Source: Patescibacteria group bacterium (GTDB taxonomy: Bacteria > Patescibacteriota > Patescibacteriia > UBA1558 > GWA2-36-10). Taken from it: a stretch of 64,000 bases of DNA. Of the stretch, positions 30,717-50,122 are shown piece after piece (the first letter of the stretch is position 1; every line of letters starts with the position of its first letter). Location: assembly GCA_041662585.1 (NCBI GenBank), contig JBAZSG010000002.1, forward strand, positions 81,525 to 145,524, in the 5' to 3' direction. The position numbers were made by a program, and so were the translations under genes. Under the pieces are notes generated by a model. That model was not told where the DNA came from and did no database searches. It was given only the letters and a program-made list of their open reading frames with translations.

Positions 30717-30722
30717 AAAATA

Positions 30723-31568
30723 TTATTTACTAATAAAAGCAGCTGCTATTATAGCTGCATTTTTTAATTTTGATACTTTGATTATGGGTAGTTTAAACAA
30801 TGGCTTGTGCTGTAATTCTTTGTTCATCGTCTGGGCAAAAAATTTATAAGCTTTAGCTATTTGACCACCCAAGACTATGATCTCTGGGTCATAAGCCTTA
30901 ACTACACCTATTAAACCAAAACCTAAATATCGGCCAAACTCAGTCCAAACTTGTAAAGCTTTTTTATTGCCTTGACTGGCTAAAATATAAAGATCTTGAC
31001 CATTTTCGGCAGCTAATTTGTATTTTTTAGCTAAACGTTTTAAAGACCTAGATCCAGCATATTCTTCAAAACAGCCTCTATTGCCACAAACACACTTGGG
31101 ACCATTAAAATTCAAAGAAACATGTCCAAATTCAGAAGCCTTACCACGACCATTAAATATTTGTTTATCGTCTACTACTCCACAACCAATACCCGTACCC
31201 AAAGTAATACCCACTACTGTTTTATATTTCTTGCCTTGACCTATCAATGCTTCAGCTAATGTAAATAAATTGGCATCATTTTCTGAGTAAATAGGAAATT
31301 TGTATTTTTTAGAAATAATTTTAGTAATTTCTTCCAAAGTAAGAGGCATATTGGCTGGACTGGGCCAAGCCAAGCATATTCCTAAACAACTAATATTGGC
31401 TTTCAAAAGACTATCCAAAACTAACAAAGTGTTTTGAGCAATTTGTTTTTTACCAAGTTTTACTTGAGCAGGATGAGATACCAGTTTTAAAATCTTACCT
31501 TGTTTAGATACCAATCCAGCAGCAATATTGGTACCACCAACATCAAAACCTATAAACGCTTTGGTCAT
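30723..31568 (-). CDS. ROK-family glucokinase
   Basis: 281 aa. FDVGGTNIAAGLV N-terminus and the CxCGxxGCxE zinc motif (CVCGNRGCFEEY). Confidence 0.7.
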   Translation of the reverse strand: MTKAFIGFDVGGTNIAAGLVSKQGKILKLVSHPAQVKLGKKQIAQNTLLVLDSLLKANISCLGICLAWPSPANMPLTLEEITKIISKKYKFPIYSENDANLFTLAEALIGQGKKYKTVVGITLGTGIGCGVVDDKQIFNGRGKASEFGHVSLNFNGPKCVCGNRGCFEEYAGSRSLKRLAKKYKLAAENGQDLYILASQGNKKALQVWTEFGRYLGFGLIGVVKAYDPEIIVLGGQIAKAYKFFAQTMNKELQHKPLFKLPIIKVSKLKNAAIIAAAFISK

Positions 31569-31574
31569 AAAAAA

Positions 31575-32165
31575 TTATTTTTCTCTTAAAAACTCTAAAA
31601 TTTTGTCTACTAAAGACGGATTTGGTAGTTTGGAAGAATTGATTATCAAATAATCCAATTTACTTTTTTTAATTAGTTCTAAATACAAATGTTGTTGAGC
31701 TATATAATCAATTGGACTTTGAGCGATACGACTATAGTGAGGATAAAGCTCTAGCCTGTCTTTAAGTCTTTTGATTAACAGCTCTTCGTCTTCGTCAAAA
31801 ATAAGTAATATTAGCTTGGTATTTATTTTGAGTAATCTCTGCTCAATAGCATAAAAATCAAAATTTTGGTTATTGTATAATTTTTGATAAACGGCTTCCG
31901 TCAAATGAAATTTTTCTGCCATGACATTGGTGTCGTTTATCTCCTCAAAAAGCTCTAAATATTTATTCAGAGTTATTTCTCCAAATTTAGTACCAAAAAT
32001 CCCAAGGTCACAATTAAACCAATGACAACCATCCATTACTTTGCCACCACTATTATACTTTGCCTCTAAATAATTATATATCTGGCTCATTAAATAGCTT
32101 TTGCCAGATAATTCTGCTCCTTCAAAAATAATATTATGTTTAGGATTCTTCATACTAATTAACAT
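31575..32165 (-). CDS. P-loop NTPase, (deoxy)nucleoside/NMP-kinase-like hypothetical
   Basis: 196 aa. Walker A-like GAELSGKS. Otherwise unassigned. Confidence 0.3.
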   Translation of the reverse strand: MLISMKNPKHNIIFEGAELSGKSYLMSQIYNYLEAKYNSGGKVMDGCHWFNCDLGIFGTKFGEITLNKYLELFEEINDTNVMAEKFHLTEAVYQKLYNNQNFDFYAIEQRLLKINTKLILLIFDEDEELLIKRLKDRLELYPHYSRIAQSPIDYIAQQHLYLELIKKSKLDYLIINSSKLPNPSLVDKILEFLREK

Positions 32166-33222
32166 TAATGGACCTCTTGCTATTTTTGGCTAAATTTAAA
32201 TATTCAATGGCATCTTGTAATAAATCATCAATAGGATTTACTACATCTTTCATATAAAACAAAAACACAGCACTACGCATAGCTGTCCAAGATTGATAGA
32301 TATTTATACGATTGATGTATTCTATATTAATGTCTTCAAGATCCTGTTTGAAATAAATCTCAACAAAATCTTTTTTGTGCTGATTTATCTCTTTTCTAGA
32401 CACAAAATTATGCCCCATAAAATCAAGCTGTTGAATAAAAGTACCAATGTCCATCATTGGATCACCAGTGGCAATATCTGTAAAATCAATCATTTCAATT
32501 TCTCTAGCCTCCAAGTTTTTGATGATAATATTTTCTGGATGAAAATCACCATAAATTAAGGTCCGGCTGATTTTTTTTCTATATTTATTGTCCAAAGTGT
32601 GTAAATCTGTTACTAATTGCTCAATATTTTTGCCCAATTTATTGCTGTTATTATAAAAATCTTTAATAAATTTTTTGGGTGCTGGAACCATAGCCAAAAT
32701 ATCAAAAACCGGCCACTTAAAATCAAGTTGCCCCAGATCTAGACTGTGTAATTTTTTTATCCACCCAGTGATAAGCCTCATAGATTTTTTTAAATCAGCT
32801 GAAATATCTTGAGTAAAAAAACTAAAAAAACTAGCTCCCGGTGAAGAAACATAAAAAAAAGCTTTTTGCCCTGCCAAAAAGAAAAGTGGTTTGGTTACTC
32901 TGTATTTACCAGTATCAAAACCGTGCTTATATAATGTTCTGGTTTTTTGATAAGCTTCTTTTCTTGACCCATCAGAATGAGCTGATACAAAAATATCTAT
33001 ATCTTTGATGCTACCATCTTTGCTGATATATTTTATTTTATATTCTACAACAAATACCGCACTAGTAATACCCAAATGTTTTTTAAATGGAGTTAAGCTT
33101 AAGCTTTTTATTTTTTTAAAATCTTTATAGTGTTTTGGTAAACGCTCGTTTAAAATTTTTATAACAAAATCTTTAATTACCAATTTGGCCATTTGTTGTT
33201 TTGTTTTTTCTGACAATTTCAT
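32155..33222 (-). CDS. APH/choline-kinase-fold phosphotransferase (anomeric sugar 1-kinase-like, NahK/AmgK-like; tentative)
   Basis: 355 aa. Brenner motif YGDFHPENIII and DFTDIATGDPMMDIG (DxxxxN / D-x-D of protein-kinase-like fold). Size matches NahK/AmgK-type sugar anomeric kinases. Confidence 0.45.
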   Translation of the reverse strand: MKLSEKTKQQMAKLVIKDFVIKILNERLPKHYKDFKKIKSLSLTPFKKHLGITSAVFVVEYKIKYISKDGSIKDIDIFVSAHSDGSRKEAYQKTRTLYKHGFDTGKYRVTKPLFFLAGQKAFFYVSSPGASFFSFFTQDISADLKKSMRLITGWIKKLHSLDLGQLDFKWPVFDILAMVPAPKKFIKDFYNNSNKLGKNIEQLVTDLHTLDNKYRKKISRTLIYGDFHPENIIIKNLEAREIEMIDFTDIATGDPMMDIGTFIQQLDFMGHNFVSRKEINQHKKDFVEIYFKQDLEDINIEYINRINIYQSWTAMRSAVFLFYMKDVVNPIDDLLQDAIEYLNLAKNSKRSINVN

Positions 33223-33228
33223 AAATAA

Positions 33229-34383
33229 TTATTTACTATATTTGTTCCAATGACTAAACCAAGTACTTTTCTTAATATCAATATATATTTTTTCTGCTTT
33301 TATTTTTTCTTGCTTATTGGCTAAAGCTAAAGACCTGATAGACTTAATCAACTCTTCTGACCCATTGTCTATCATGTCTGGATTCCAGGTCAATGGAGAA
33401 AAATCTGATGGCTTTCTAGCGCTAGCCCACCAAAAAGTACAAGAAGACAAGGCTCTGTCTAAATGTGTCCTAGCCCAATGCCAATTTTTATCTTGCTTAT
33501 ATTTATCTATTAAACTAATTGCTAAAAAAACCAATCTCCAAAGTAAACTATGTATTTTATTTTTTGGATGACTCCAAAGAGCAAAAGGAATACTATTTTT
33601 TAATTCAGAATCCAAGCTCTCCCAAGACGCTGCTCTTAAATTTATTTTTTGCTCGTTTTTGGAGTTTTTAAGATATTCTGAAACTGTTTGAACTGTTAAA
33701 TTCTTGTTTTGTAATATTTTTTCTAAATGCCCCTGCCAGTCTTTATGAAAGTGTCCATATATTTCACCGTCCGTACCAGTAATTATTGTCTGACTAGGTT
33801 CGTTTTTCTCAATTTTATTAAAAATCACTTCTGGTGGATATGATTTTGAAATAGCTCTGTTTCTAAATACTATCTTTAATTTGGTTTTTTTGTGAATATA
33901 AAAAGTATCTTCATTATATTTTCCGGTGTAAGCTATCGGATCTAAAATAATCCATTCAAATTTCATTTTCCTCACAATATCAGCCACTTGATTTGAATAA
34001 GCCATCTCTGGCATATAAAATCCTTTTATTTTATCTAGTTTAAAATATTGTGCCAAAGTTTCTTGATTTAGGTTTATTTGTCTTGTTATTTCTTTACTAG
34101 GAAGTAGTGGAAGCAAAGCATGATATTTGGAACTAGCGCTAAGCTCTATCTGCCCTTTAGAAACAACTTTTTGTAATCTAGTTAATAAATCTGGACGATA
34201 GTCATTTAATTGTTCAACTAAATTGGCCGTAATATTTAAGCTCGCTTTAAAATTGGGATATTTTTCAAACAAAGTTAATAAATACTCATAGCTCTCACTA
34301 GAAATCTGTTCAATCACACCTTTGTCTTGCCAAGGTGGTTGATAAATATGAATAAAATTTACCCAAGTTATTTTATTTGCCAT
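33229..34383 (-). CDS. glycoside hydrolase family 57 protein
   Basis: 384 aa. VNFIHIYQP (GH57 H-Q-P region), YMPEMAYS (WLPExAY nucleophile region), ITGTDGEIYGHFH (acid/base Asp region). Confidence 0.55.
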   Translation of the reverse strand: MANKITWVNFIHIYQPPWQDKGVIEQISSESYEYLLTLFEKYPNFKASLNITANLVEQLNDYRPDLLTRLQKVVSKGQIELSASSKYHALLPLLPSKEITRQINLNQETLAQYFKLDKIKGFYMPEMAYSNQVADIVRKMKFEWIILDPIAYTGKYNEDTFYIHKKTKLKIVFRNRAISKSYPPEVIFNKIEKNEPSQTIITGTDGEIYGHFHKDWQGHLEKILQNKNLTVQTVSEYLKNSKNEQKINLRAASWESLDSELKNSIPFALWSHPKNKIHSLLWRLVFLAISLIDKYKQDKNWHWARTHLDRALSSCTFWWASARKPSDFSPLTWNPDMIDNGSEELIKSIRSLALANKQEKIKAEKIYIDIKKSTWFSHWNKYSK

Positions 34384-35848
34384 TATCTTTTTTAAATTTT
34401 ATTGCTTTTTTATATAATTCTATATATCTTTGAGCTGGAAGGTCCCAAGAAAATGAAGTCTTCATACCTTCCCTGACCAAACGTTTCCAAGTTGGTCTAT
34501 ATTTATATGTTTCCAGCGCTCTAGTAACAGCGACTAACAATTCTTTGGCATTGTAATGTTTAAAGGTAAAACCGTTTCCATTATTGGTTTCTGGATCAAA
34601 ATTTACTACTGTATCTGACAAACCTCCAATACTACGCACTATTGGTACACAACCATAACGAAAGCTGATTAACTGATTTATACCACATGGCTCAAAACGA
34701 GATGGTAGTAAAAACATATCAGCGCCAGCATAAACAGATGTTTCCATTTTGCGATCAAAAACTACAAAACGCAACTTTTCTGGAAATTTCTTTTGAATTT
34801 TTTTAAGTTTCTTAATATATTCTTTATCACCATCTCCCATGATTATAACCTGTACATCTCTAAGCAATAAAGTTGGTAATATATCTAGTGTCAAATCCAA
34901 GCCTTTTTGTTCGGCGATTCTAGAAGTAAGTCCAATCAAAGGAGTTCTGTCATTTGAAGGTAATTTATAAAACTTTTGTAAGTATCGTTTATTAAGTAAT
35001 TTTCTATGTAATTTGTCTAAAGTATAATTCTGATGTAAACCTCTATCGGTTTTTGGATTATATTTTTTATAATCAATGCCATTCACCACCCCAAATAACT
35101 TGTGTTTACGATTGACTAATATACGATGTAAATCTTGCCCAAAATCCTTTTCCATTATTTCTTCGGCGTAGGTTTCTGATACTGTGTTTATAATATCTGC
35201 TTCCAAAATTCCCCGTTTGGCAAAATTTAGATATTCAATATCTGGATCAGAAAAAGATAGCAAGGCTTTTGTGCCGTTATCTTTTTTCTTAGCTGGTATT
35301 TCCCACCAAGGCCTGCCCATTTGATAAATTAAATTATGAATAGTATATACAGTAGCTGCTTTACTTAAAGTCTCGCTGTTTTTAAAACGAGTTTTTTTGA
35401 GATGAGGTATAAGACCCGTGTGCCAATCATGACAATGTATAATATCGGCATTAAATTTTAATAATGATACCAATTTTAAAGCAGCCACAGAAAACATATA
35501 AAAACGAGCGTTTTCATGATTTGATCCGTAGATACTTTTACGACGAGAAAAATATTTATCATTGTGTACAAAATAAATTGATAAACCAGGCACCATCTCT
35601 GTCCGATAATAAGCTACCTTAACTTCATTATCTTTATCAATATGTAAAGAAACATCACTATATATTTTTTCTAGCTTATGAATATCTGTATTAATAATCT
35701 TTTGATAATATGGTGTGATAATAATCACATCGTGTCCCAACCTAAAAAGAGACTTAGGCAAAGAACGAGCCACGTCTCCTAGACCACCGGTTTTTGAATA
35801 TGGCTCAACCTCTGAAGCGATTGATACAATTTTAAATTTCTTTTTCAT
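34373..35848 (-). CDS. glycogen/starch synthase paralog (GT5/GT4)
   Basis: 491 aa. SEVEPYSKTGGLGDV N-terminal motif, same architecture as the 28105-29559 gene. Confidence 0.8.
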   Translation of the reverse strand: MKKKFKIVSIASEVEPYSKTGGLGDVARSLPKSLFRLGHDVIIITPYYQKIINTDIHKLEKIYSDVSLHIDKDNEVKVAYYRTEMVPGLSIYFVHNDKYFSRRKSIYGSNHENARFYMFSVAALKLVSLLKFNADIIHCHDWHTGLIPHLKKTRFKNSETLSKAATVYTIHNLIYQMGRPWWEIPAKKKDNGTKALLSFSDPDIEYLNFAKRGILEADIINTVSETYAEEIMEKDFGQDLHRILVNRKHKLFGVVNGIDYKKYNPKTDRGLHQNYTLDKLHRKLLNKRYLQKFYKLPSNDRTPLIGLTSRIAEQKGLDLTLDILPTLLLRDVQVIIMGDGDKEYIKKLKKIQKKFPEKLRFVVFDRKMETSVYAGADMFLLPSRFEPCGINQLISFRYGCVPIVRSIGGLSDTVVNFDPETNNGNGFTFKHYNAKELLVAVTRALETYKYRPTWKRLVREGMKTSFSWDLPAQRYIELYKKAIKFKKDNGK

Positions 35849-37284: not shown

Positions 37285-38868
37285 ATGTCAAAAATAAAAA
37301 ATCTAATAAAAAAATTTAAGTTAGACTATATTATATTGGCTATAATAATGTCTATTTACTATGGATATATTCAATGGAATAATTTTGTAGGCGATCCAGA
37401 TGGTTTCTATCATGCCAAATTAGCTAAATGGCTAGCTGAGGGCAAATTAATAGAAAGTCTTCCTTGGATGCAATTTTCTAGCCTTAGAAACGATTTTACA
37501 GATCATCATCTACTATACCATCTATTATTAGCCCCTTTTACCATTTTTTTTGATCCAATGATAGGTGTAAAAATAGCCACTGTAATATTTGCTGTAGCTA
37601 TGGTATTAACTTTTTATTGGTTTTTAAAAAGATTCAATATTCCGTGGCCTTTTATTTTTGCTACGTCTTTTTTAATATTAAATGGTTTTAATTTTAGAGC
37701 CTCCTTAATAAAAGCAAATACTTTGTCCGTGTTAATGCTCTATTTAATTGTTTATGCTTTGTTTAAACAAAAATATTGGCTCAGTACCTTACTATCAGCT
37801 ATGTTTATCTGGCTCTATGGTGGTTGGCCTTTAGCAATATTAATTCTTATCACATATCTTATCTCTTATAAAATATATAAAAAATTAAATACTAATAAAT
37901 TAAAAATATTTTTAAACAAAAGTATAGAATTGCTAGGCCCATTTCAAAAAAAATATAAATTATTAAAAACATCTTTATATCTACTTGGTGGTTTAGCCCT
38001 AGGGCTGATAATCAATCCTTACTGGCCAAAAAATTTGTATTTTTATTATCAGCAAGTTTTACAAATTGGTATCATAAACATGAGCAGCCAATTTAATGTT
38101 GGCAATGAATGGTATGGAGCTGATATGAGTCAAATTATTTTTTCTAGTCCTCATCTTTCAGTCATAGCTATAATTGCTATTATGGTTTTATCTTTTAATA
38201 TAAAAAAAATCAGCCATCTTACTTGGTTTGCTTTTTTAATGTCTCTGGGATTTTTTATATTGACTATAAAATCAAAAAGATATATAGAATATTATATGCC
38301 TTTTACTATCTTATTTATAGCTAGCGCTAGTAAAGATATAAAAGAATTTATTGATTGGTCAAAATATTTAAAAACGTGGAAAAACTTGTCCCAACAAATA
38401 CGCATTTGTTTGACAATAACTGCTTTGTTATTTTTGACAATAACCATGCCCTTTGCCTATGATAGCATTCTAAATGTCAGCTTAAGAAATAAATACCCTA
38501 TAGACAAATTTCAAACGGCTAGTTTGTGGCTCAAAGAAAATACTGAAGCAAATTCTATAGTTTTTCATAGTGATTGGGATGAATGGCCAATTCTTTTTTA
38601 TAACAATGATCACAACTATTACATAATTGGTTTAGACCCTACTTTTATGGAAAATTATAATCCACAACTACATAAACTGTATAGAGAGATAACTTATGGC
38701 AACATTCGTTATAATATTTCCAAATATATAAAAAATGATTTTAAAGCTGATTATATCTTTGTGGACCGAGATGGTCATGAAAATTTTATACAAAATCTTA
38801 TCTTAGACAAAGGCGTATCAGAAGTATATCAAGATAATAAAACAATAATATACAAAATTATTCTTTAA
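37285..38868 (+). CDS. polytopic membrane protein, possible GT-C glycosyltransferase (ArnT/PMT-like)
   Basis: 527 aa, more than 10 TM helices. First loop GDPDGFYHAKLAKW resembles the acidic motif of GT-C enzymes. Large C-terminal soluble domain. Confidence 0.3.
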   Translation: MSKIKNLIKKFKLDYIILAIIMSIYYGYIQWNNFVGDPDGFYHAKLAKWLAEGKLIESLPWMQFSSLRNDFTDHHLLYHLLLAPFTIFFDPMIGVKIATVIFAVAMVLTFYWFLKRFNIPWPFIFATSFLILNGFNFRASLIKANTLSVLMLYLIVYALFKQKYWLSTLLSAMFIWLYGGWPLAILILITYLISYKIYKKLNTNKLKIFLNKSIELLGPFQKKYKLLKTSLYLLGGLALGLIINPYWPKNLYFYYQQVLQIGIINMSSQFNVGNEWYGADMSQIIFSSPHLSVIAIIAIMVLSFNIKKISHLTWFAFLMSLGFFILTIKSKRYIEYYMPFTILFIASASKDIKEFIDWSKYLKTWKNLSQQIRICLTITALLFLTITMPFAYDSILNVSLRNKYPIDKFQTASLWLKENTEANSIVFHSDWDEWPILFYNNDHNYYIIGLDPTFMENYNPQLHKLYREITYGNIRYNISKYIKNDFKADYIFVDRDGHENFIQNLILDKGVSEVYQDNKTIIYKIIL

Positions 38869-40780
38869 TATTTATTCTTTCACTGACTTTTTTTAAAATC
38901 AAATCAACTTTAGCATCTCGGATATCACTCAATTTTACCTCTCCCTGCCAAGAAAAAAGCTGATAAGCTTTAATATCGTCAGATAAATAATAATAAAAAT
39001 TTATCAAGTTATCTTCTGACCAATCAAAAACCAACCAAACACCATAATCTAATGGGATATCTATATAATAATCGTCTCCATAAAAACGCAGTAAATAATT
39101 ACTAATATCTGACTGTGTTTTTTGATAACTAATTTCTAATATATTAAGATTATCTTGTTTAAAATATTTGCCTGAAACTACAAAATCATTATTATCAAAG
39201 TCTTGTGGTTTTTCTGATGTGCTATAAATCGACAATTCTTTTTCTGATTTTACCAATGATTTATTTTGCCATAACAATAAATTATTTTTAGCAGCTATAA
39301 GAACATAATCATTGAGTCTATTACGAAAAATATCCGACACTTTTATATTATCAAAGTGTCTATTTTTTACTTGTTCAAAATAAGCTAAAATCTGCAACAT
39401 ATCTTCAGTGTCTATCAATATATAATCTACTTCGGGAAATTTAAAATCGTCTAAATAAAATTGTGTTTTACCCAAATAACTATACTGCAAAGGATAAATA
39501 TTTATCCGATTACTAAGTGCCGGCGCCAGAGAAGCACTGACTACCAAACTAGCCTCTTCTGGTATTTGATCAATAAAATATTGTCTATTTTCTCTTAACT
39601 CAGCTGCATAATGATAGAATAAAACATTTTTTATCGGCGATAAAAATACCGAAAAATAAATTACTGTAAAAACAAATAAACTAATAAATATATTTTTATG
39701 CGTCAAAATAGTTTGGCTAAATATAAACTTTTCTTTATTTACAATTTTATTAATAGCAAAAATAGTGGCTATAAAAAGTCCCGGCAAAAATACCGTCGCA
39801 TAATGCATACTATAAACTGCGCTATTGATGCCTTGTGCTGTCAGGGCAAATTGCATTAATGGAAAAAATAATAACCACAAATAACGAGGCGCCAACAATG
39901 GCAAAAATCCCAAGGCTATAGCCATAATAAAAAGACTAGCAATGTTATGCCCACTTAATAAATGCCCCAAAAATTGTAAAGGATGACTAAGCCAAATCCA
40001 TAATATTGATATCAAGCTGTCTCCTCCCAACCAGCCATAATACAAAAAAAACTTATTGCTATCACCCAAATTAAAAGAGGCAATAATTTGTAAAGCTCCT
40101 AGAAAATACAAAATTCCTAAAATTGGTGTAAATAACCACTTGGCACTTCTTTTATCTAAAAAGGCTAGTATAGAAAAACCAAGTAATATAAAACCGATAT
40201 CCTCCCTGACTAAAAGAGCTAAGACGAAAAATAATAACCATAATTTATAATTATGACTATAATAAAAATAAAATGCCCAAAATATAAAAAATATAGCAAA
40301 AGATAAAAAATGAAACTCAAAAAGATTAGCATTGTGTAATAAGAAATTAATAAACCAGAGAAATATAATACCCAAAGAAATTAATTTATTATTTATGACT
40401 TTTTTCGCTATCTTATAAATTGGCCAAGCACATAAAGCCAAAATTATACTCTGCATAATCAATAATATTTGCGGACTGGGCCATAATTTATATAAAGGTA
40501 ATAACAAAATAATTATTGGCGTAAAATGATCAGCTAAATAATTATTTAAATTAAAAGTCATAGCAAATAAACGCCCATTGCTAGTATTAAAAAATACTTG
40601 ATTAAAAATAGTCAAATCAAAAATATTATAACTAAAATTATAATATTTTTTTAAGCTCAGCCAAGAAAAAAATAAACTATATATAAAAATAGCTAGCCAA
40701 AGTATTTTATAACTATATTGTTTCAGAAATTTCAACATTAAGTTAATTATATCATAAAAAAATGTATTTTTGACAAACAA
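38858..40780 (-). CDS. polytopic membrane protein, hypothetical (DUF-type or GT-C-like)
   Basis: 640 aa, about 12 TM helices in the N-terminal 430 aa, then a soluble C-terminal domain. Convergent with, and overlapping by 11 nt, the 37285 gene. Confidence 0.3.
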   Translation of the reverse strand: MFVKNTFFYDIINLMLKFLKQYSYKILWLAIFIYSLFFSWLSLKKYYNFSYNIFDLTIFNQVFFNTSNGRLFAMTFNLNNYLADHFTPIIILLLPLYKLWPSPQILLIMQSIILALCAWPIYKIAKKVINNKLISLGIIFLWFINFLLHNANLFEFHFLSFAIFFIFWAFYFYYSHNYKLWLLFFVLALLVREDIGFILLGFSILAFLDKRSAKWLFTPILGILYFLGALQIIASFNLGDSNKFFLYYGWLGGDSLISILWIWLSHPLQFLGHLLSGHNIASLFIMAIALGFLPLLAPRYLWLLFFPLMQFALTAQGINSAVYSMHYATVFLPGLFIATIFAINKIVNKEKFIFSQTILTHKNIFISLFVFTVIYFSVFLSPIKNVLFYHYAAELRENRQYFIDQIPEEASLVVSASLAPALSNRINIYPLQYSYLGKTQFYLDDFKFPEVDYILIDTEDMLQILAYFEQVKNRHFDNIKVSDIFRNRLNDYVLIAAKNNLLLWQNKSLVKSEKELSIYSTSEKPQDFDNNDFVVSGKYFKQDNLNILEISYQKTQSDISNYLLRFYGDDYYIDIPLDYGVWLVFDWSEDNLINFYYYLSDDIKAYQLFSWQGEVKLSDIRDAKVDLILKKVSERINIKE

Positions 40781-40829
40781 AAAACTCTCTTTCCAGAGAG
40801 TCTATAAGTATATTATAGAATATAGTAAT

Positions 40830-41216
40830 TTATTGTGGTATGGCTACCCCAGTGGCGTTGCCCAAGGCCATCATCACGGTCCTAGTCAAAATATAAGCTA
40901 AGAAGGCAATTGATATACCTATCAAAGCGTTTTTTATACTCGTTTTGGCAGCCAATACTTTCTCTGGATTACCACCTGAAGTCATCCAATTAAATCCGGC
41001 TGATACTAAAAAATAAGTAAAAAACATCATAAAGGCTCCCAAAAAACCATTGATCCATCTACCCACGACCACATAAACATCGGCATCTTCTCCCATAGGG
41101 AAGTTTGCTTCTCTAGCTGCTGTATCAAGTCCAGAATCAATAGGAGCTGCTAAAGTAATGATCGGCAACACAATCAATAATAAAAAAATGCTTAATTTAT
41201 ATTTCGTTAGTTTCAT
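40830..41216 (-). CDS. small secreted two-TM protein, VirB2/TrbC-pilin-like topology (paralog 4)
   Basis: 128 aa. Signal peptide (LLIVLPIITLAAP), TM1, loop AGFNWMTSGGNPEKVLAAK, TM2. Confidence 0.4.
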   Translation of the reverse strand: MKLTKYKLSIFLLLIVLPIITLAAPIDSGLDTAAREANFPMGEDADVYVVVGRWINGFLGAFMMFFTYFLVSAGFNWMTSGGNPEKVLAAKTSIKNALIGISIAFLAYILTRTVMMALGNATGVAIPQ

Positions 41217-41297
41217 TTTTTGTTTTTAAACTCTAGTCTAAGCTCTAGTAGGTCATTGTGATAGATGACCTACTATAGTCTAGACTACATAGGTCAA

Positions 41298-41654
41298 CTA
41301 TGCTGTGGCGGTATAAAGTTCGCTCAATACGAATCTAGATACAGCGTAAGCTGTTAGTACGATTACTAGACCGACAACGCCAGCGCCGATAAGTTTTTTG
41401 GCTTCGTCAACTTTTTCAGTATTACCTTGAGAAGTCATCCATTTGAAACCACCCATCAAAATAATTAAAGTTGTTAAAATTCCTAAAAATCCTAAGATGA
41501 TGTTTACTACACCACCAATAGTTTCTCTTAATGGTCTTGAACCTAAAGCAATGTCAGTGTCTGTAAAATCATTATATCCCCAAGAACCAAGATTTGCTTG
41601 AGCGTTAGCTAGAGCTGGAAATGCTAATAAGGCTAATGTAAGTATTTTTTTCAT
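41298..41654 (-). CDS. small secreted two-TM protein, VirB2/TrbC-pilin-like topology (paralog 3)
   Basis: Start moved to ATG 41654 (MKKILTLALLAFPALANA signal peptide), preceded by strong SD GAAAGGGGGTGA. The provided ORF extends to 41702. Loop GGFKWMTSQGNTEKVDEAKK. Confidence 0.4.
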   Translation of the reverse strand: MKKILTLALLAFPALANAQANLGSWGYNDFTDTDIALGSRPLRETIGGVVNIILGFLGILTTLIILMGGFKWMTSQGNTEKVDEAKKLIGAGVVGLVIVLTAYAVSRFVLSELYTATA

Positions 41655-41741
41655 ATTTTCACCCCCTTTCAAATATAATAGATTAATTAAATTATAGAAC
41701 AAAAATAAGCTTTTTACAATCTGTTATCAACAGATATTTAA

Positions 41742-42077
41742 TTATGCCTCACTACCTATCAATGTAAAGACAAAATTGAGTATTACATAGCTCATAAATA
41801 TAATAATCAGGCCTAATATAGCCCACAAGACAGTGTCTTTGCCTTGTTTTAATCTGTCGGCACTTCCTTGAGAAGTCATCCATACTATACCTCCCCAAAC
41901 CAGCATAAACAAAGCTATGGCACCTGTCACCCCCATCAAACCCTTAATCATTTGCCCGGCAAGCTCTGGAATATTTTCAGCTTGTAAAGGATTTGGTATC
42001 TTTATCCTTGCACTTTGTGCTCTAGCCGTATAAGGAAGAAACATGATAAGAGCTATAAAAAGTTTTTTAATAAACAT
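41742..42077 (-). CDS. small secreted two-TM protein, VirB2/TrbC-pilin-like topology (paralog 2)
   Basis: 111 aa. Signal peptide ...YTARAQ, TM1, loop GGIVWMTSQGSADRLKQGKD, TM2. Confidence 0.4.
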   Translation of the reverse strand: MFIKKLFIALIMFLPYTARAQSARIKIPNPLQAENIPELAGQMIKGLMGVTGAIALFMLVWGGIVWMTSQGSADRLKQGKDTVLWAILGLIIIFMSYVILNFVFTLIGSEA

Positions 42078-42092
42078 AAAGCTATTGATAAA

Positions 42093-42725
42093 TTAGTTAT
42101 ATACACAAACTTGTCCATTAGGACATATGCCTGTAGCATTTGGCACTGGTTCTAAATCGACTATTGGTGGTGAAACACATTGACCAGTTCTAGTATCAGC
42201 ACTTTGACTTAAAGCCTGTATTTCACAAATAGTCAAACATTTTTCAGAAAAATTATCTACTGGACCAGGTGGAATAACACCTGAACATTGTTTGTCTGCA
42301 CCACAAGATGTCCCTCTAGCAGCGCCCTGACAAGAAGCAAACTCTCCTTCTTCAATCCTAAACTCCTGACGAACATTCAATACATCGTTGACAAAAAAAG
42401 TTAAAATCAAATAACTACCAAAGGCTAAGATAAGTGCAAAAACAGTATTGAGCATAATGGTTTTTCCTTGATTTACTTTTTCAGCACTACCTCCAGAAAT
42501 AAGCCAACGTATACCGCCCCAAACAAAAAACAATAAAGCTACGGCCCCCATAGCTCCTAATAATAACTGAATTAAAGAAGAAAAAGCTATAGCTATATCA
42601 GCAACACTACAATCCCCTCTACCAGTACAATAAGCCACGTCGTCCAAAAAACCAGCCTGAGCTATATGAGGCAATATAAATAATACACCACTAATCAATA
42701 AAATTTTAGTTATTCGGTGGTACAT
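42093..42725 (-). CDS. small secreted two-TM protein, pilin-like (paralog 1) with C-terminal Cys-rich extracellular domain
   Basis: 210 aa. Signal peptide ...HIAQA, loop GGIRWLISGGSAEKVNQGK, then an about 90-aa tail with at least 10 Cys (CQGAARGTSCGADKQCSG...CPNGQVCVYN). Confidence 0.4.
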   Translation of the reverse strand: MYHRITKILLISGVLFILPHIAQAGFLDDVAYCTGRGDCSVADIAIAFSSLIQLLLGAMGAVALLFFVWGGIRWLISGGSAEKVNQGKTIMLNTVFALILAFGSYLILTFFVNDVLNVRQEFRIEEGEFASCQGAARGTSCGADKQCSGVIPPGPVDNFSEKCLTICEIQALSQSADTRTGQCVSPPIVDLEPVPNATGICPNGQVCVYN

Positions 42726-44085
42726 AGGTTTGGTTTATTTTATTAATAAATAAGTTTATTGGCGTTGCTTCTTGGTCCATTATCAATTTACCCGAAACCA
42801 AGTCATCAATAATTTCGGCTGTATATTGCTCAGCTAAAGTAATATTGTAGCCATTGTACCAGTTGGTGGCCGTCAAAACCTGTGAAGCAAAAGGAGCTAT
42901 TTCATAATCATTTAATTGTTCATCTATCAAGGCTCTGAGAGCGGTTGGTCTTTTGTTGGCCTTTAAATAAATGGATACTTTATCAGCGGCGGCCGTACTT
43001 TGTATAAAATTCCAAGCTGCGTCTGTATTTTTAGATTTTTTAGCTACTACATTTACCCAATAATCAGCATAATATTTACTACCTTGAGCTCCTCTGGTTT
43101 GGGGGAAATTTTTGATATCCCAATCAAACTGAAGATTTCTGGCTCGAAGCTGATCAGCATGATAACTATAGCCAAATAAATAAGCCAATCGGCCACTAGC
43201 AAATACTTCTAAAGCGTCGTCAAGATCTGCATTCCAACTGTAGCTAGCCTTACCGGGACGAGCAAAATCAGTATAAAAATTAAAAGCTTGAGACAGGCGA
43301 GTAGCTGATTCTCTATCAGCCAAAGGATCAAATTGTTTTCCATCGGCTATTACTCCATTTTGAAGCATAATACTAGAAAAAACATCAAAAAAACGAGGTA
43401 TATTGTGTGTTCCACCCAAAGCTACGGCTGATTGAATTATTTTGTTACTATCTGTTGCCTTGGTCAAGCGTGATGCTTGTTCAACTAAATCAAAAAAATC
43501 GTCCATTGGCTCTGGAATACCAGCTTTGGTAAGTAAATCAATGTTATAAAAAGTAACCAAAGTATCTAAATAATAAGGCAAACCATAAACTTTATCTTCC
43601 ATTACTACGTCATCATATACTACCGATACATATTGATTTTTAATATCTTGAGCTGATAAACCCTTAAAAGTTTTGATCACCGTGACCAGTTCTTCTTTAA
43701 TTGAACCTTGTAATTCGTATACTGGTATCTGATAAGTATTTGGCATGGGGACAATGCGATGTTGATAATTTTTGAGCCAAGTAGAAGGAATAGCAAAAAT
43801 ATCTGGACCTCTGTCATCTGCCCAAGCCTCTAGCAGCTTGCGTTCATATTCTTCGTATCTAAAATTTTTATAATTTACTTTGATGGTTGGATGACTTGTT
43901 TGATAATCAGCTATCAAAGCGCTAAGCTGTTCTGGTGTATCCCAAACTCCCCAATATTCTAAAGTAATTGGTTCATAAAGCTCAGCTGGTCCTGATTTAA
44001 AAAGCTTACAAGAAAAACCAGTATTGACTATAAAGACTGTTAATATAACTAATAAAAATAATTTTTTTCTTGGTTTGAAAAGCAT
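42706..44085 (-). CDS. extracellular solute-binding protein (family 1, sugar-ABC-type), lipoprotein
   Basis: 459 aa. Lipobox ...NTGFSC, periplasmic-binding-protein type 2 fold signatures (YWGVW...). No permease or ATPase genes nearby. Confidence 0.55.
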   Translation of the reverse strand: MLFKPRKKLFLLVILTVFIVNTGFSCKLFKSGPAELYEPITLEYWGVWDTPEQLSALIADYQTSHPTIKVNYKNFRYEEYERKLLEAWADDRGPDIFAIPSTWLKNYQHRIVPMPNTYQIPVYELQGSIKEELVTVIKTFKGLSAQDIKNQYVSVVYDDVVMEDKVYGLPYYLDTLVTFYNIDLLTKAGIPEPMDDFFDLVEQASRLTKATDSNKIIQSAVALGGTHNIPRFFDVFSSIMLQNGVIADGKQFDPLADRESATRLSQAFNFYTDFARPGKASYSWNADLDDALEVFASGRLAYLFGYSYHADQLRARNLQFDWDIKNFPQTRGAQGSKYYADYWVNVVAKKSKNTDAAWNFIQSTAAADKVSIYLKANKRPTALRALIDEQLNDYEIAPFASQVLTATNWYNGYNITLAEQYTAEIIDDLVSGKLIMDQEATPINLFINKINQTYVPPNN

Positions 44086-44092
44086 TATAAAA

Positions 44093-44956
44093 CTATTTTA
44101 ATGTTTTAAGATATTTTTTTAAAAAAGCCTTAAGTTCTGGCTTGTCTTTGGCATACTCTAGATTTGTCCTAAGTAAATTGAGAGGATCTCCCGTCGTCAA
44201 CCACTGACCATCTTTAATCTCTTTGGCATAAAACTTGCCACCAGCTTTGATATAATCACGAATAGCATCAACTATCCACAATTCCTTTCCTTTTCCTAGT
44301 CTGGTTTTTTTCAAAACATTTATAATCTCCTGATTTAAAATCATACGCCCAAAGTCTGCTAGACGAGAAGGTGCTTCCGCTACACTTGGTTTTTCAATAA
44401 TACCATCGAGTTGCATTGTCTTTTTATCTTTAATACTGACAATCCCATATCTATTGACTTGATTACGAGGAACTTCTTGAACACCAATCATCAAATGACC
44501 TGTTTGATTATAGTCGTCAATCATTTGTTTGGTAAAAGAAACTTTTGATTTTACTAAATCATCTCCCCAAACATACAGAAATGGCTCGTCGTCTACCAAA
44601 GAAGCGGCTGATAAAACAGGGGTACCATTGCCATAAGGACCTTTTTGTCTGACATATATAAAATTGGCCATTTCAGAAATTTTCTTTATTTCTGCTAACT
44701 TTTCTTTTTTGCCAGCTTTGGCCAATTCATTTTCTAGAGCCCAAGAATGATCAAAATGATCTTCCAGTGGTTTTTTGTCCCATTTTGTAACCAAAATAAT
44801 ATCTTCAATGCCTCCAGCCACTAGCTCTTCAACTACCAATTGAATGGCTGGTTTATCCACTATTGGCAACATTTCTTTGGGCATAGATTTTGTAGCTGGT
44901 AACAATCGTGTGCCTGACCCAGCTACGGCAATTATAGCTTTTTTAACTTTTTTCAT
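44093..44956 (-). CDS. galU: UTP--glucose-1-phosphate uridylyltransferase
   Basis: 287 aa. AIIAVAGSGTRLLPATKSMPKEMLPIVDKP N-terminus. Confidence 0.85.
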   Translation of the reverse strand: MKKVKKAIIAVAGSGTRLLPATKSMPKEMLPIVDKPAIQLVVEELVAGGIEDIILVTKWDKKPLEDHFDHSWALENELAKAGKKEKLAEIKKISEMANFIYVRQKGPYGNGTPVLSAASLVDDEPFLYVWGDDLVKSKVSFTKQMIDDYNQTGHLMIGVQEVPRNQVNRYGIVSIKDKKTMQLDGIIEKPSVAEAPSRLADFGRMILNQEIINVLKKTRLGKGKELWIVDAIRDYIKAGGKFYAKEIKDGQWLTTGDPLNLLRTNLEYAKDKPELKAFLKKYLKTLK

Positions 44957-44995
44957 GTATATATTATACTAAAATTTAAGCTTTATGTAAATAAA

Positions 44996-45616
44996 TTAGG
45001 CGAAAATATTTTTACGATGTTCAAAAATATGAGCTCCTAAATCAAAAATTGTCTTAAGTATGACCAAAAAAACTATAGCCGAAATATTTTGATCATAGTT
45101 AGCATAAATAAACCCTCCTCCAGCGAGCATCACCACCAAATGCATTATTACTACTCGTTTATAAGGAGCAAACATTTGCTTTACTAAACTAGTATTTCTA
45201 TATTCTTCTTTTTTTATAAAATTAAATACAAAAGACATGCCATGACTTAAAAATATAAAAGCCAATGATATAAATAAACCCTCTAAATATTTAAAAACTA
45301 TTTTAAAGGCTTCAAGTTGTCCGGTAGCACTAGCTAGCTCTGGCTGGAAAAGCTGTAATACAAAAAATAAATGTACAAACATAAAAATAGAATAGTGCAC
45401 AATAAAAAATGGCAACAGAGGTGTAAAAGTATTATTATTTATTTTTTGTATTTTCAAGACATTAAAAAATCCTACGACAGCTGACTCTAGCCAATACAAA
45501 ACAATCACGGTAAATACATCCCAAGCCAAAAATAAAACCCCAAACAGAGGAATCATATTGGCCAAAATCAAAACTAAAGCAGATGGATAAAAAAATATTT
45601 TATTAAACTTTGACAT
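44996..45616 (-). CDS. membrane protein, hypothetical
   Basis: 206 aa, 5-6 TM helices. Overlaps the next gene by 14 nt. Confidence 0.3.
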   Translation of the reverse strand: MSKFNKIFFYPSALVLILANMIPLFGVLFLAWDVFTVIVLYWLESAVVGFFNVLKIQKINNNTFTPLLPFFIVHYSIFMFVHLFFVLQLFQPELASATGQLEAFKIVFKYLEGLFISLAFIFLSHGMSFVFNFIKKEEYRNTSLVKQMFAPYKRVVIMHLVVMLAGGGFIYANYDQNISAIVFLVILKTIFDLGAHIFEHRKNIFA

Positions 45617-46868
45617 TATTTTTATATTTAGCTACTAAAAATGTAAAAGCCAACATTATAAAAAACAATAAAGCCAAATCATTTTTAAAATAAGGAACAT
45701 CTACCAATCCATGCACAAACCAAGTAAACCACATCATAGCTAGTGGCCAAGCTAAATCATTTTTGGCTTTAAATGTATCTTTGAGCAAATAAACAATATA
45801 AATCATTAGGGCTATAAAAACAATTAGCCCCAAAATACCAAGCTCTGTCCAAAAATTTAGAAAAATATTGTGTGGGTAAAGATAAATTTCAAGCCAATCT
45901 GTCTGATGATACTGGGCCAAGGCTTTTTGATAGACTCCAATGCCTGTGCCTGTCAAAAAATTATCTACCAACAAATCACTGGTTTCTTGCCATTGATTAA
46001 AACGAATATCTAAAGAAGAAGACTGTAGATTTAGTTTTGGATTAAAATCTATATTAGGTAAAATTAATAAAATGCCCAGTAAGCCAATCATTATTATAGC
46101 AATGCCTATTTTGCGTATTTTTTTGGCTAAAATTAGTGCTAAAAATATAGACAAACCAATGGCTACTATTGCTCCCTGACTGACGGTCATAATAGCCAAA
46201 GCCAAACCAAAAATAGCTAATACAGCATAATGCCAATTTTGTATTTTTTGTTTACTATAAAGCCATAGACCAGCAAAAAAAGCAGTAAGGGGCGCAGTCA
46301 AAAGACTAAGTGCATTGGGATATGAAAATGGACCAGTCAATCTTTTGACATTGGGAAAATTGTAAGCCCCGATATAGTTCCAATTTGTAAAATTTTGATA
46401 CATGCTTGTAGAGAATAAATGAAGCAACAACAAGACAAACGAATTGATGATAACTTGCCAATCTTTTTTGTCGCGAATAGTATAAATAAAAACCAAAAAA
46501 AACATCATTGGCTCTAAAAAATACGCTCGCCACAATCCCAAACTACTAAAAGAAAAATTTGTTATAAGAGCCGAGATACTAGCCAATATCCATAAGCTCA
46601 GTAAATATCTAAGTATTTTAGGGACTGGATTTTTATCATTATTTTTAAAATAAAAATTTATTGTTTGATATCGCTTGTCTTTAAACAACCAAAATAAAAA
46701 TAAATAAACTATCATCAATTCCAAAAAAGTAGTTGGCAATCCCAAAATATCAAAACGCCATAGATAAGATGGTAAGAGGACTATCACAAAACCTAAACCC
46801 CATGTCAATTTATGGCGACAAGTAAAAATAAAAGCTATAAAAATTAAAACAAAAAATAAATTCATCAT
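45603..46868 (-). CDS. O-antigen ligase/polymerase-like (Wzy_C-like) membrane protein
   Basis: 421 aa, about 11 TM helices with a large loop near the C-terminal third. Adjacent to a flippase. Assignment by topology and context only. Confidence 0.35.
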   Translation of the reverse strand: MMNLFFVLIFIAFIFTCRHKLTWGLGFVIVLLPSYLWRFDILGLPTTFLELMIVYLFLFWLFKDKRYQTINFYFKNNDKNPVPKILRYLLSLWILASISALITNFSFSSLGLWRAYFLEPMMFFLVFIYTIRDKKDWQVIINSFVLLLLHLFSTSMYQNFTNWNYIGAYNFPNVKRLTGPFSYPNALSLLTAPLTAFFAGLWLYSKQKIQNWHYAVLAIFGLALAIMTVSQGAIVAIGLSIFLALILAKKIRKIGIAIIMIGLLGILLILPNIDFNPKLNLQSSSLDIRFNQWQETSDLLVDNFLTGTGIGVYQKALAQYHQTDWLEIYLYPHNIFLNFWTELGILGLIVFIALMIYIVYLLKDTFKAKNDLAWPLAMMWFTWFVHGLVDVPYFKNDLALLFFIMLAFTFLVAKYKNNVKV

Positions 46869-48295
46869 CGATTTAAAAATATATTTTTAAGATTTTGTTT
46901 GCTAACTGTTTTAAATAAAATAAGTAATATTAGATATAAAAACCAAGCTAATAAAATAACAAATATTATATTATGGGCTTGCAACATCCAAGCTAGCCAA
47001 AAACTAAGTACTCCAGCTATAAGACTTTTATATAAAACTTTAAAATTTATTTTTAGCTCAATATTGCGTCTAGCTACTCGCCAAGCAAAAATTACTATCA
47101 ACCATTCGACCAGCAAAGTAATATAAGCTGCTCCCCAATAAGAATAAGTGGGAATAAATATAAAATAGCCTATCAAGGCTATGATAGCAGCCCATAAAAA
47201 ATATTTTATCATTTGTTTTTGAGCATCAAGAGCTACTATCAAATATATAAAAAGTGTCCCAAAAAATATTCCTACTGTAGCTAAAATTAACACATTGAGT
47301 ATTGGTCCAGAAGAAGCAAATTCTTCTCCAGCTAACTTTATCATCAATGGCTTAGAAACTAGCCAAGTACTAAAAAGCATAGCTATAGATAATACAGAAA
47401 AAAAATCAAAACTATATTGAAAACTATCATTTAATTGTTTTATTTTTTTGGCTACCCAAGAAGCTGTAAAAATTGGCAAAATTAAAGACATAAACATGTG
47501 TGGAAAGGTAGCCATGACTTCCAGTACTCTATATGGTGCCCCATATAAACCCACTTCTTCTGGTGAGCGATAAGCTGATAACACAAGAGTATCGGCCTTA
47601 AAATACAATAAATTTAAGACTACGGTAATAGCCAATGGCCAAGAACGATGCCATACTACTTTCCAATAAGTAAAATCCCAAGCCAAAGATAATTTTGCAT
47701 GTTTGCGTATAAAAAATAAAAGCAAAATAAATGCTAAGGCCATAGTAATAGCGTTTCCCCAAAGAATGGCATTGAGAGAAAAACCATAGATAAATAAATA
47801 AAGTAAAAAACCAGCATAAAGTAGCTTATTTACAAAATCGACTATAGCTACTCTAGCCATATCCAATTTTTTAGAAAAAACTGCTGCTAAAGTTGCCATT
47901 AGAGTTTGAAAAAAGAAGGTTCCCATAAACAATATCACGCCCAGTTTGACTTCATGGCTATACGGAAAAAACTGAACAACAATTGGAATGAGAATCAACA
48001 TGACCAAAGAAGAAATAACTCTAATAGTAAATATATTATTTATTATTTTATTTTCACTAATGCTATCTTTGACAGCTGAAATCTCTCGAAGCATGGCCAC
48101 ATAAAGCCCCAGGTCTGCCAAAATAGCAAAAATCTGAACAAAGGCAAAGATAGTGGTGTAATAACCAAAACCAGCTTGCCCCAACATACGAGTAATCAAA
48201 GCCAAAGAAAAAACGCCAATAAAAATATTGACGATTCGAATAACAACTTGCCAAAGAGTATTGGTAAATATTTTATTTGCTGTAGACATACTCAA
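46865..48295 (-). CDS. polysaccharide/oligosaccharide flippase (MOP superfamily, Wzx/MurJ-like)
   Basis: 476 aa, about 14 TM helices. N-terminus NTLWQVVIRIVNIFIGVFSLALITRMLG typical of PST-family exporters. Confidence 0.6.
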   Translation of the reverse strand: MSMSTANKIFTNTLWQVVIRIVNIFIGVFSLALITRMLGQAGFGYYTTIFAFVQIFAILADLGLYVAMLREISAVKDSISENKIINNIFTIRVISSLVMLILIPIVVQFFPYSHEVKLGVILFMGTFFFQTLMATLAAVFSKKLDMARVAIVDFVNKLLYAGFLLYLFIYGFSLNAILWGNAITMALAFILLLFFIRKHAKLSLAWDFTYWKVVWHRSWPLAITVVLNLLYFKADTLVLSAYRSPEEVGLYGAPYRVLEVMATFPHMFMSLILPIFTASWVAKKIKQLNDSFQYSFDFFSVLSIAMLFSTWLVSKPLMIKLAGEEFASSGPILNVLILATVGIFFGTLFIYLIVALDAQKQMIKYFLWAAIIALIGYFIFIPTYSYWGAAYITLLVEWLIVIFAWRVARRNIELKINFKVLYKSLIAGVLSFWLAWMLQAHNIIFVILLAWFLYLILLILFKTVSKQNLKNIFLNR

Positions 48296-49441: not shown

Positions 49442-50122
49442 TTATTGTAATGTTTCTCTTAAAATAATAACCTCTACTGTTTTTATCTTACTATGTTTCT
49501 TTTTAACACTTATTTCCAAATTATTCAAACCATTTATCAAATTTATAGTTTGTTCAAATTTACCATCCTCATCCAATAATACCAATTCATTGTTAATAGT
49601 CAACTGTGCCTCTGGTTTTGTTTGTCCTTTTATCAAAACACTAGCCTCTGTAGTTTTAAAATTGTTGGCCGGTTCAAAAATCAAAATATCAGGGGGAGAT
49701 ATTGTATTGTTTATCTCCCATGCCAAATATGATAATAATATTAAAATCAAAAATCCAATGCCCATTGATTTTAATATCTTTGGTTTCAAAATATTGTAAG
49801 GAGAAATGCTATTTGTTTTGACTGTTGGCTTGGTTATTTTGCTTAGTTTGTCACTAACAGATTTTTCTATTTTATAATCCACCAACAACTCCCCAACTTG
49901 CAAACCCAAAAAATCTCCGTATAATTTTAACCAAGCTTTAGAATAAATATCACCAGGTAAATTTTGATAATCCCCACGTTCTAATATTTCCAAATATTTA
50001 ATTTGAATACTAGTTGCTTCTGATGCTTGTTCTAAGGTTTTGTTTTGTTCTAACCTAGCTCGTCTCAGCTTATCGGCCAATGTCTGTGATCGACTTATTT
50101 CCTTTTGTCTAAAACTTGTCAT
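49442..50122 (-). CDS. RodZ-like helix-turn-helix membrane protein
   Basis: 226 aa. N-terminal XRE-type HTH ([30 protein letters not shown]), single TM, C-terminal domain. Confidence 0.5.

Follow-up and report, generated by a model that had tools for sequence, protein, structure and literature searches.

Tandem arrays of VirB2-like pilin genes are a described feature of Patescibacterial chromosomes. A search of 3,035 Patescibacterial genomes with PF18895 and PF04956 returned 441 VirB2 arrays in 383 assemblies, an array being defined as 2–11 pilin genes of low identity (average 25%, maximum 54%) arranged in tandem or with one non-pilin gene between them (Quinonero-Coronel et al. 2025, PMC12102498). 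In Southlakia epibionticum an array lies inside its type IV secretion system (T4SS) cluster and was shown to be essential (Wang et al. 2023, PMC10633639), strain ML1 carrying six pilin genes within SEML1_0006-0019. The homologous array of Saccharibacteria likewise lies within the T4SS cluster (PMC12857230, PMC10633639), and Patescibacterial VirB2-like arrays have been described as having the 'potential to elaborate conjugative pili' (PMC12857230). A published perspective calls the function of the Patescibacterial T4SS 'completely unknown' and speculates on a role in uptake; the T4SS is essential in the one species tested. In Bartonella and Anaplasma, tandem divergent virB2 paralogs are thought to serve antigenic or host-range variation (as cited in PMC12102498). 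We have analysed an array of this type in a stretch of 64,000 nucleotides (nt) from a Patescibacteria group bacterium (contig JBAZSG010000002.1), referred to here as the window, in which five co-oriented minus-strand open reading frames (ORFs) at 40830–44085 encode a solute-binding protein (SBP) followed by four small proteins, W1 to W4:

42706–44085, minus strand: SBP, a family-1 (carbohydrate-type) solute-binding protein and probable lipoprotein of 459 amino acids (aa), first gene of the unit (PF01547 SBP_bac_1, 73.7 bits)
42093–42725, minus strand: pilin W1, 210 aa, a VirB2-like helix hairpin with a Cys-rich C-terminal domain (PF18895, 32.3 bits)
41742–42077, minus strand: pilin W2, 111 aa (PF18895, 40.8 bits, and PF04956 TrbC, 32.2 bits)
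41298–41654, minus strand: pilin W3, 118 aa, the proposed major subunit (PF18895, 35.5 bits)
40830–41216, minus strand: pilin W4, 128 aa, the last gene and the one evolving fastest (PF18895, 32.7 bits)

The description that fits the locus best is a variant of the known pilin array which is remote from ATPase genes, headed by an SBP gene, endowed with a Cys-rich first pilin and typical of class ABY1. Its four consecutive genes, 25–39% identical to one another, fall within the definition of PMC12102498. That they encode a type IV secretion-type pilin array is, in our judgement, very likely; that the SBP is a functional partner of the pilin apparatus, as gene coupling alone would suggest, is about an even prospect with a slight lean in its favour. 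No new kind of gene is involved. What the locus offers is a concrete lead, a highly conserved sugar-type SBP coupled across a whole class to pilin genes, with no transporter nearby and with disulfide-rich domains on the adjacent pilin.

Pilin family membership and topology

All four small proteins exceed the gathering cut-off of PF18895 T4SS_pilin (32.3–40.8 bits against 26.6). W2 also exceeds that of PF04956 TrbC (32.2 against 27.9 bits), for which W3 remains below the cut-off at 18.9 bits and W1 and W4 are unmatched. A profile of the W3 family (52 sequences) aligns over 92 columns with the VirB2 of a virB1-B2-B3-B4 operon from a Pseudomonas plasmid (hhalign probability 88.5%, E 2.7e-6), with the G-x-x-W-M-S/T-S motif in register, and among the weak tblastn matches of W2 in 7.3 Gb of plasmid sequence 38 of the 39 records are Pseudomonas, mostly in genes annotated VirB2. 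Scores of W2, W3 and W4 on NCBIfam NF045849 are sub-threshold (26.6–38.4 bits, cut-off 40). One source names a W3 homolog (P0197) a 'TRAP-type C4-dicarboxylate...' transport component, a label which is probably spurious and caused by hydrophobic similarity.

Inspection of the sequences locates at the N-terminus of each protein a signal-like segment ending in AQA, ARA, ANA or LAA, and hydropathy identifies two hydrophobic spans of ~20–30 residues with a short basic loop between them. AlphaFold2 models these spans as helix hairpins in W1 (residues 41–76 and 81–115) and in W3 (residues 42–73 and 79–117), pLDDT in the latter being 86–95 over most of both helices. Across 307 pilin ORFs, drawn from 78 related loci and the window, the loop motif retains both Gly residues in 100%, S/A in 100%, M/L in 95%, N/S in 94%, W in 81% and E/D in 79%; the motif is real, far beyond chance and nearly invariant. 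Combined, the sequence features point to Sec-exported two-helix pilins of the VirB2/TrbC superfamily (PF18895), belonging to a chromosomal, conjugation-derived T4SS of the type typical of Patescibacteria.

An earlier note on this DNA, made from its letters alone, had described the five minus-strand ORFs, the signal peptide followed by two membrane spans, the conserved loop and the resemblance to VirB2/TrbC pilins, and all of these are borne out, the coordinates and protein sizes by the ORFs listed above, the architecture by the A-x-A-type cleavage sites, hydropathy and AlphaFold2 hairpins, the loop by the alignment and the resemblance by the Pfam and hhalign results. Its further claim of a new, uncharacterised kind of surface-filament module does not survive. 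Patescibacterial arrays of 2–11 such genes have already been published (PMC12102498, PMC10633639, PMC12857230), so that the claim amounts to rediscovery of a described class, and the exact W1 protein stands in NCBI as MFA6307519.1 under the name 'MAG: pilin [Patescibacteria group bacterium]', the exact SBP being MFA6307520.1, with 188,401 bp as the length of the contig.

The solute-binding protein, the cysteine-rich tail and the paralogs across relatives

The SBP scores 73.7 bits on PF01547 SBP_bac_1 (cut-off 26), and its nearest solved relatives are all sugar or oligosaccharide binding proteins of ATP-binding cassette (ABC) systems, with PDB matches to E 7e-22. At the end of its signal sequence G23, F24 and C26 are invariant in 14 homologs; the resulting box, G-F-[GS]-C, is non-canonical as a lipobox, and the protein is a probable lipoprotein. 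Being longer and better conserved than the pilins, the SBP was chosen as bait for related loci. With one genome taken per species, 510 SBP relatives were found and the best 80 were retrieved with 10-kb flanks, their ORFs being called and then searched with a hidden Markov model of the four window pilins. Identity of the SBP across these 80 species-level genomes is 39–81%. Two of the 80 loci are truncated by contig ends, leaving 78 that are evaluable.

In 78 of the 78 evaluable loci the next gene after the SBP gene, at a median gap of 5 nt, is a pilin gene of the same orientation, and all 303 pilin ORFs in the related loci are on the SBP strand. In the window the 3' end of the SBP gene and the 5' start of W1 share exactly 20 nt (42706–42725). 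The order in the nearer group of relatives (SBP 54–81% identical) is GalU, SBP, three to six pilins and DUF2079, and in the distant group (SBP ~40%, including Falkowbacteria) it is SMC, further genes, a ComM-like gene, SBP, one pilin, an HTH_25 protein, a methyltransferase, a small membrane protein, further genes and six pilins. Between the two groups the upstream neighbour thus switches from GalU to ComM-like and the inner structure changes, whereas the SBP-pilin junction is constant. The possibility that secretion components are hidden between the SBP-adjacent pilin and the six-pilin array was rejected, as the genes there encode the HTH_25 (RodZ-like) protein, the methyltransferase, a 127-aa membrane protein and a UPF0102 protein.

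These intervening genes recur in the window at other positions. The RodZ-like membrane protein, with HTH_25 and Glucodextran_B-like domains, is encoded within 10 kb of the SBP gene in 66 of the 80 loci; it lies at 49442–50122 of the window and at 11902–12570 of locus L042, with equivalents in others, and directly follows the SBP-adjacent pilin in distant relatives. The methyltransferase, a membrane protein of 127–135 aa without a Pfam family and the UPF0102 protein, which in distant relatives sit between the SBP-pilin pair and the six-pilin array (L054 12456–13393 and equivalents), are found together at 7696–9197 of the window, 33 kb from the array, and the trio is therefore a moved block of synteny.

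The nearest named relatives of the window genome are Candidatus Komeilibacteria, with SBP 79–81% identical, assigned to class ABY1 in Table S1 of PMC12102498, and the genome is a Komeilibacteria-like member of that class. Many records titled 'uncultured Gammaproteobacteria bacterium' (L013, L015, L020, L021, L025 and others; CAY.../CAZ...) carry the Patescibacteria-type locus with the same neighbours; the title is probably wrong.

A family-1 SBP would be expected beside its cognate permease and ATPase, and neither was found in the window or in the 80 loci. Pfam scans of essentially all ORFs of at least 100 aa, together with phmmer, detected no ABC permease or ATPase in the 64-kb window, and phmmer detected no MalF, MalG or MalK homolog at E 1e-3 or better in the window or the 80 loci with their flanks (~1.3 Mb). 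In the literature searched we found no published link between a binding protein and VirB2-like pilins in Patescibacteria, and the SBP-first arrangement before the pilin genes of every evaluable relative appears to be undescribed, as do the remoteness (>10 kb) of such an array from transporter and VirB4/VirD4-like genes and the near confinement of Cys-rich tails to the SBP-adjacent pilin, together with the order that the paralogs retain from species to species.

W1 contains 10 cysteines, eight of them in a C-terminal tail of ~90 aa (132, 141, 147, 163, 167, 183, 201 and 207) and two in the mature N-terminus (33 and 39), and they are conserved in 17 full-length homologs. AlphaFold2 folds the tail (residues 130–210) with moderate confidence (pLDDT 79–88) into a small mixed alpha/beta domain. 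The tail is detectably homologous in nine other species, all near relatives, and is replaced further away by other Cys-rich sequences. A Cys-rich tail was taken to be a C-terminal extension of at least 40 aa in which there are four or more Cys. By this definition 30 of 79 SBP-adjacent pilins have one, versus 2 of 228 other pilins, and the Cys count of these tails is always even, from 6 to 22. We propose, by analogy with the orientation of VirB2-type pilins, that W1 carries an outward-facing, disulfide-rich domain, for which a tip or adhesin role may be inferred.

The order W1-W2-W3-(W3-like)-W4 is kept in about 25 species, in which a given paralog resembles its positional orthologs far more than it does the adjacent paralogs of its own genome. 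W3 is the best conserved, at 41–88% identity in nearer relatives (57–88% in most) and 39–57% in distant relatives, where it is the first gene of the six-gene array; 251 homologs were found. Positional orthologs of W2 are 44–71% identical and those of W4, in the last position, only 32–57%. The conserved order argues for distinct parts of one structure rather than variable copies. W3 is likely to be the major subunit, as it is the most conserved and has expression signals of its own, with W1, W2 and W4 proposed as specialised minor subunits. Pilin copy number ranges from 1 to 11 between species, and in loci L008 and L009 W1 has been lost and the SBP gene kept next to W2. At 10138–10944 of L086 masked bases (X) join two pilin ORFs into an apparent protein of 268 aa, which is a masking artefact.

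The earlier note had also recorded the 20-nt overlap and the want of a permease or ATPase for the SBP, and had taken the paralogs for specialised subunits rather than redundant copies; the first two are confirmed by the coordinates and scans, and the third agrees with the conserved order and orthology in about 25 species. Two of its statements need amendment. The tail of W1 is Cys-rich and ~90 aa long as described, but holds eight cysteines and not at least 10, the latter being the count for the whole protein. The SBP is an orphan as claimed, but calling it merely co-oriented understated the case, as no other gene of the unit is so well conserved and every evaluable locus has it coupled to a pilin gene.

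Putative expression signals and neighbouring genes

Three candidate signals lie within or directly after the unit:

41691–41719, minus strand: promoter-like site in the W2-W3 spacer, TTGTAA, 17-nt spacer and TATAAT (consensus scan; a pattern match only)
41233–41289, minus strand: strong RNA hairpin without a U-run in the W3-W4 spacer (folding energy)
40772–40803, minus strand: terminator-like hairpin and T-run directly 3' of W4 (terminator scan; a 9-pair stem followed by TTTGTTTGTC)

The sequence itself, read directly, places the start of W3 at an ATG at 41654, preceded by a strong Shine-Dalgarno ribosome-binding site, AAGGGGGTG, and not at the TTG at 41702 given in the ORF-finder listing. Among the four paralogs only W3 has both a promoter-like site of its own and a strong ribosome-binding site. 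The W3-W4 hairpin has a folding energy of -28.3 kcal/mol and a z-score of -4.7 against 200 shuffles, and may act as an attenuator or transcript-stabilising element. The hairpin and T-run after W4 would mark the end of the unit.

The window belongs to the chromosomal core of a low-GC Patescibacterium, with rpoB/rpoC, recA, ftsK, ruvABC, polA and nusA present, along with a proton-pumping pyrophosphatase, glycogen genes and cell-envelope glycan genes. Immediately upstream of the SBP gene, 44093–48295 on the minus strand encodes a GalU-type nucleotidyltransferase, a DUF6498 protein, a Wzy_C-domain protein and a Wzx-type flippase, a block retained only in about 22–27 of the nearer relatives. The Wzy_C domain is known also from pilin O-oligosaccharyltransferases, and this neighbour raises the idea, by analogy, that the pilins may be glycosylated. 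Downstream, two large polytopic membrane-protein genes converge at 37285–38868 (plus strand) and 38858–40780 (minus strand), their 3' ends overlapping by 11 nt; one of the pair is a 527-aa protein without a Pfam family and the other is DUF2079, whose gene near relatives conserve as the neighbour downstream of the array. Further away, a carbohydrate-storage island at 27156–35848 carries paralogous starch/glycogen synthase genes at 28105–29559 and 34373–35848, together with GH57, a debranching-enzyme-like gene, a ROK kinase and a GalT-like gene.

The proposed apparatus, its rivals and known systems

The overall explanation that we favour, and regard as likely, is a T4SS-type pilin array with the SBP as its partner. 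By analogy with VirB2 and TraA, the pilins would be exported by Sec and their signal peptides cleaved, each subunit inserting as a membrane hairpin whose two ends lie outside and whose basic G-G-x-x-W-M-T-S-x-G-N-x-E-K loop faces the cytoplasm; subunits would then be drawn out of the membrane and polymerised by machinery of the VirB4/VirB6/VirB3 type, the genes for which would lie elsewhere in the genome. What results would be a surface filament or conduit for host-cell contact, with W3 as the major and W1, W2 and W4 as the minor subunits, and on the same analogy the termini, and hence the W1 tail, would face the outside of the filament. The SBP, a probable lipoprotein, would be translationally coupled to W1 and could serve as a dedicated partner that sits at the base of the structure and, for recognition or capture, binds a carbohydrate exposed on or derived from the host, a role suggested by gene coupling only; it is not proposed as a component of an ABC importer. 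A wider form of this idea, in which throughout class ABY1 the SBP is dedicated to the VirB2-type apparatus and the filament or conduit, assisted by the binding protein, recognises or takes up glycans or nutrients that come from the host, is speculative and we regard it as doubtful. Binding proteins typify import and sensing systems, and the coupling of one to pilin genes therefore makes an uptake or host-recognition hypothesis for these pili testable, and, were the SBP dedicated to the pilin apparatus, an import-type receptor would be coupled to conjugation-type pilins instead of to an ABC permease.

Several observations weigh against this explanation. No VirB4, VirD4 or VirB6 gene was detected in the window by the Pfam scans and phmmer, as had been observed from the letters, and the window, like the 10 kb around the array in each of the 80 species, yielded no VirB4, VirD4, VirB6 or VirB3 gene. 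phmmer searches with PrgJ, PcfC, PrgH, PrgI, PrgK and PrgL of pCF10 found no homolog in the window or loci, in a test which is insensitive because PrgJ fails to detect the Komeilibacterial coupling ATPase by BLASTP; a lineage-specific query and a family-independent Walker A census were therefore added. The Komeilibacterial coupling ATPase as phmmer query found no homolog in the window or loci, and among proteins of at least 450 aa the census returned only SMC, ComM and FtsK clusters. Structure searches gave no significant match (best E 0.8–1.4), the top Foldseek match of the W1 model being an Aeropyrum pernix conjugation pilus at a non-significant E of 1.4 and the remainder generic hairpins. 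As a helix hairpin is a generic fold, this outcome means that pilin membership rests on sequence profiles and not on fold comparison. A PDB sequence search with the four-paralog profile likewise returned only insignificant membrane-protein matches, and according to PMC12857230 filament formation has yet to be demonstrated for any VirB2-like protein of Patescibacteria. The sole ground for the role given to the SBP is adjacency, and the six locus-bearing genomes that could be classified are all ABY1, so that the whole sample may be one class and the adjacency inherited synteny.

Indirect evidence for machinery elsewhere comes from the relatives. Six with the SBP-pilin locus, matched by organism name to Table S1 of PMC12102498, are listed there as ABY1 with VirB4 present. 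One Komeilibacteria relative has, besides its array, a W3-like pilin that stands alone (76% identical) and lies 2.5 kb downstream of an ATPase of 817 aa. This ATPase passes the Pfam cut-offs for DUF87/HerA, T4SS-DNA_transf, TrwB_AAD_bind and TraG-D_C and is on that account a VirD4-type coupling protein. In this second locus (L092, 5084–7537 and 10001–10375) the N-terminal half of the ATPase is listed as DUF8128, and nearby genes encode a second DUF8128 protein and a beta-propeller protein of 699 aa.

Of the alternatives, one accepts the T4SS pilins and takes the SBP-pilin adjacency for inherited gene order without functional link, the SBP serving an ABC sugar importer encoded elsewhere or acting as a free glycan receptor. 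We consider this possible though rather unlikely. Pfam and the PDB relatives mark the SBP as typical of family-1 sugar-type proteins, the classifiable genomes come from a single class, L008 and L009 keep the SBP next to W2 in the absence of W1, and the wider synteny is partly conserved, as with the HTH_25 gene of 66 loci. The adjacency nevertheless persists in all 78 of the 78 loci, even where SBP identity falls to 39%, when the upstream neighbour and the genes past the first pilin have been rearranged; the genes overlap or lie a few bases apart, as is typical of co-translated partners; no ABC permease or ATPase was detected in ~1.3 Mb of loci; and the Cys-rich tails are concentrated on the SBP-adjacent pilin. 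It seems improbable that the paralogs are interchangeable alternative major pilins for surface variation or host-strain matching, as proposed for virB2 of Bartonella and Anaplasma. Because positional orthologs are closer than same-genome paralogs in about 25 species, the copies are old and individually maintained, and both the distinct domain architecture of W1 and the restriction to W3 of a promoter-like site with a strong ribosome-binding site speak against interchangeability, even though the paralogs are only 25–39% identical, copy number runs from 1 to 11, W4 and terminal members evolve fast and the same possibility was raised for Patescibacterial arrays in PMC12102498.

The two remaining alternatives dispense with the filament. 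A new binding-protein-dependent uptake channel, in which the two-helix proteins oligomerise in the membrane and replace the ABC permease for the SBP, would account for an SBP that is always an orphan at its locus and always coupled to small membrane proteins with no T4SS ATPase nearby; the non-significant fold matches include membrane hairpins that assemble into rings, such as ATP synthase subunit c, and an uptake role for the Patescibacterial T4SS is the speculation of the perspective mentioned above. Such a channel is nonetheless very improbable, since the sequence homology is to conjugative pilins and not to transporters, the unit is without an energy-coupling component, the homologous array of Saccharibacteria lies inside a T4SS cluster and a W3-like paralog lies near a coupling ATPase in the Komeilibacteria relative. 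We give almost no weight to the idea that these are unrelated small membrane proteins which share a two-helix topology, generic as that topology is and many as are the unrelated hairpins returned by structure searches, given Pfam scores that exceed the curated cut-offs and a profile alignment with a genuine VirB2. Three such identities were tried and rejected. A type IV pilus (PilA-type) pilin is at odds with the missing G/FTLxE prepilin-peptidase motif at the N-termini, the ordinary signal peptides with A-x-A sites and the two helices; a holin or other phage small membrane protein with the lack of a PHROG match at E 0.01 or better; and a bacteriocin-immunity protein with the Pfam pilin scores. 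Holins and immunity proteins were the earlier note's examples of an unrelated family to which matches would refute its reading, and no support for them was found.

Among known systems, the T4SS-type pilin array proposed here is closest to the Patescibacterial VirB2 arrays, with which it has in common PF18895, tandem co-oriented divergent paralogs, a chromosomal location and a monoderm ultra-small host. It differs in lying >10 kb from any VirB4/VirD4-type ATPase, in the orphan SBP gene at its head and in the Cys-rich domain of its first pilin, features not mentioned in PMC12102498 or PMC10633639. The Gram-negative VirB2/TrbC/TraA pilins (PF04956) resemble W1 to W4 in the signal peptide, two hydrophobic helices and short basic loop, in the G-x-x-W-M-S/T-S motif common to the Pseudomonas plasmid VirB2 and in the passing of the TrbC model by W2; unlike them, the present pilins have no adjacent virB3 or virB4, a single-membrane host, several paralogs and, in W1, a 90-aa C-terminal domain, and W1, W3 and W4 fail the TrbC model. 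The Mbov_0395 family (NF045849) of Mycoplasma integrative conjugative elements is similar as a pilin-like two-helix conjugation protein of a wall-less or monoderm bacterium, but W1 to W4 score below its cut-off and are not members, and no mobile-element context is present here. Bartonella and Anaplasma virB2 arrays are alike in being tandem divergent pilin paralogs of host-associated bacteria, whereas the paralogs here are old and positionally conserved.

For the SBP, the carbohydrate ABC binding proteins (SBP_bac_1; MalE, GanS and UgpB type) provide the Pfam fold family, the sugar-binding PDB relatives and a probable lipoprotein-type signal, the difference being that this SBP is without a nearby permease or ATPase in the loci of 80 species and is coupled to pilin genes. 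PrgZ/TraC, the pheromone-binding lipoproteins encoded by enterococcal conjugative plasmids, bind peptides and, in regulating conjugation, feed a chromosomal Opp permease; they are not known to lie next to pilins, and pCF10 is without pilins. Their likeness to the present case is that of a binding-protein-fold lipoprotein encoded with a monoderm T4SS, the pCF10 record annotating a 'peptide pheromone-binding protein TraC'.

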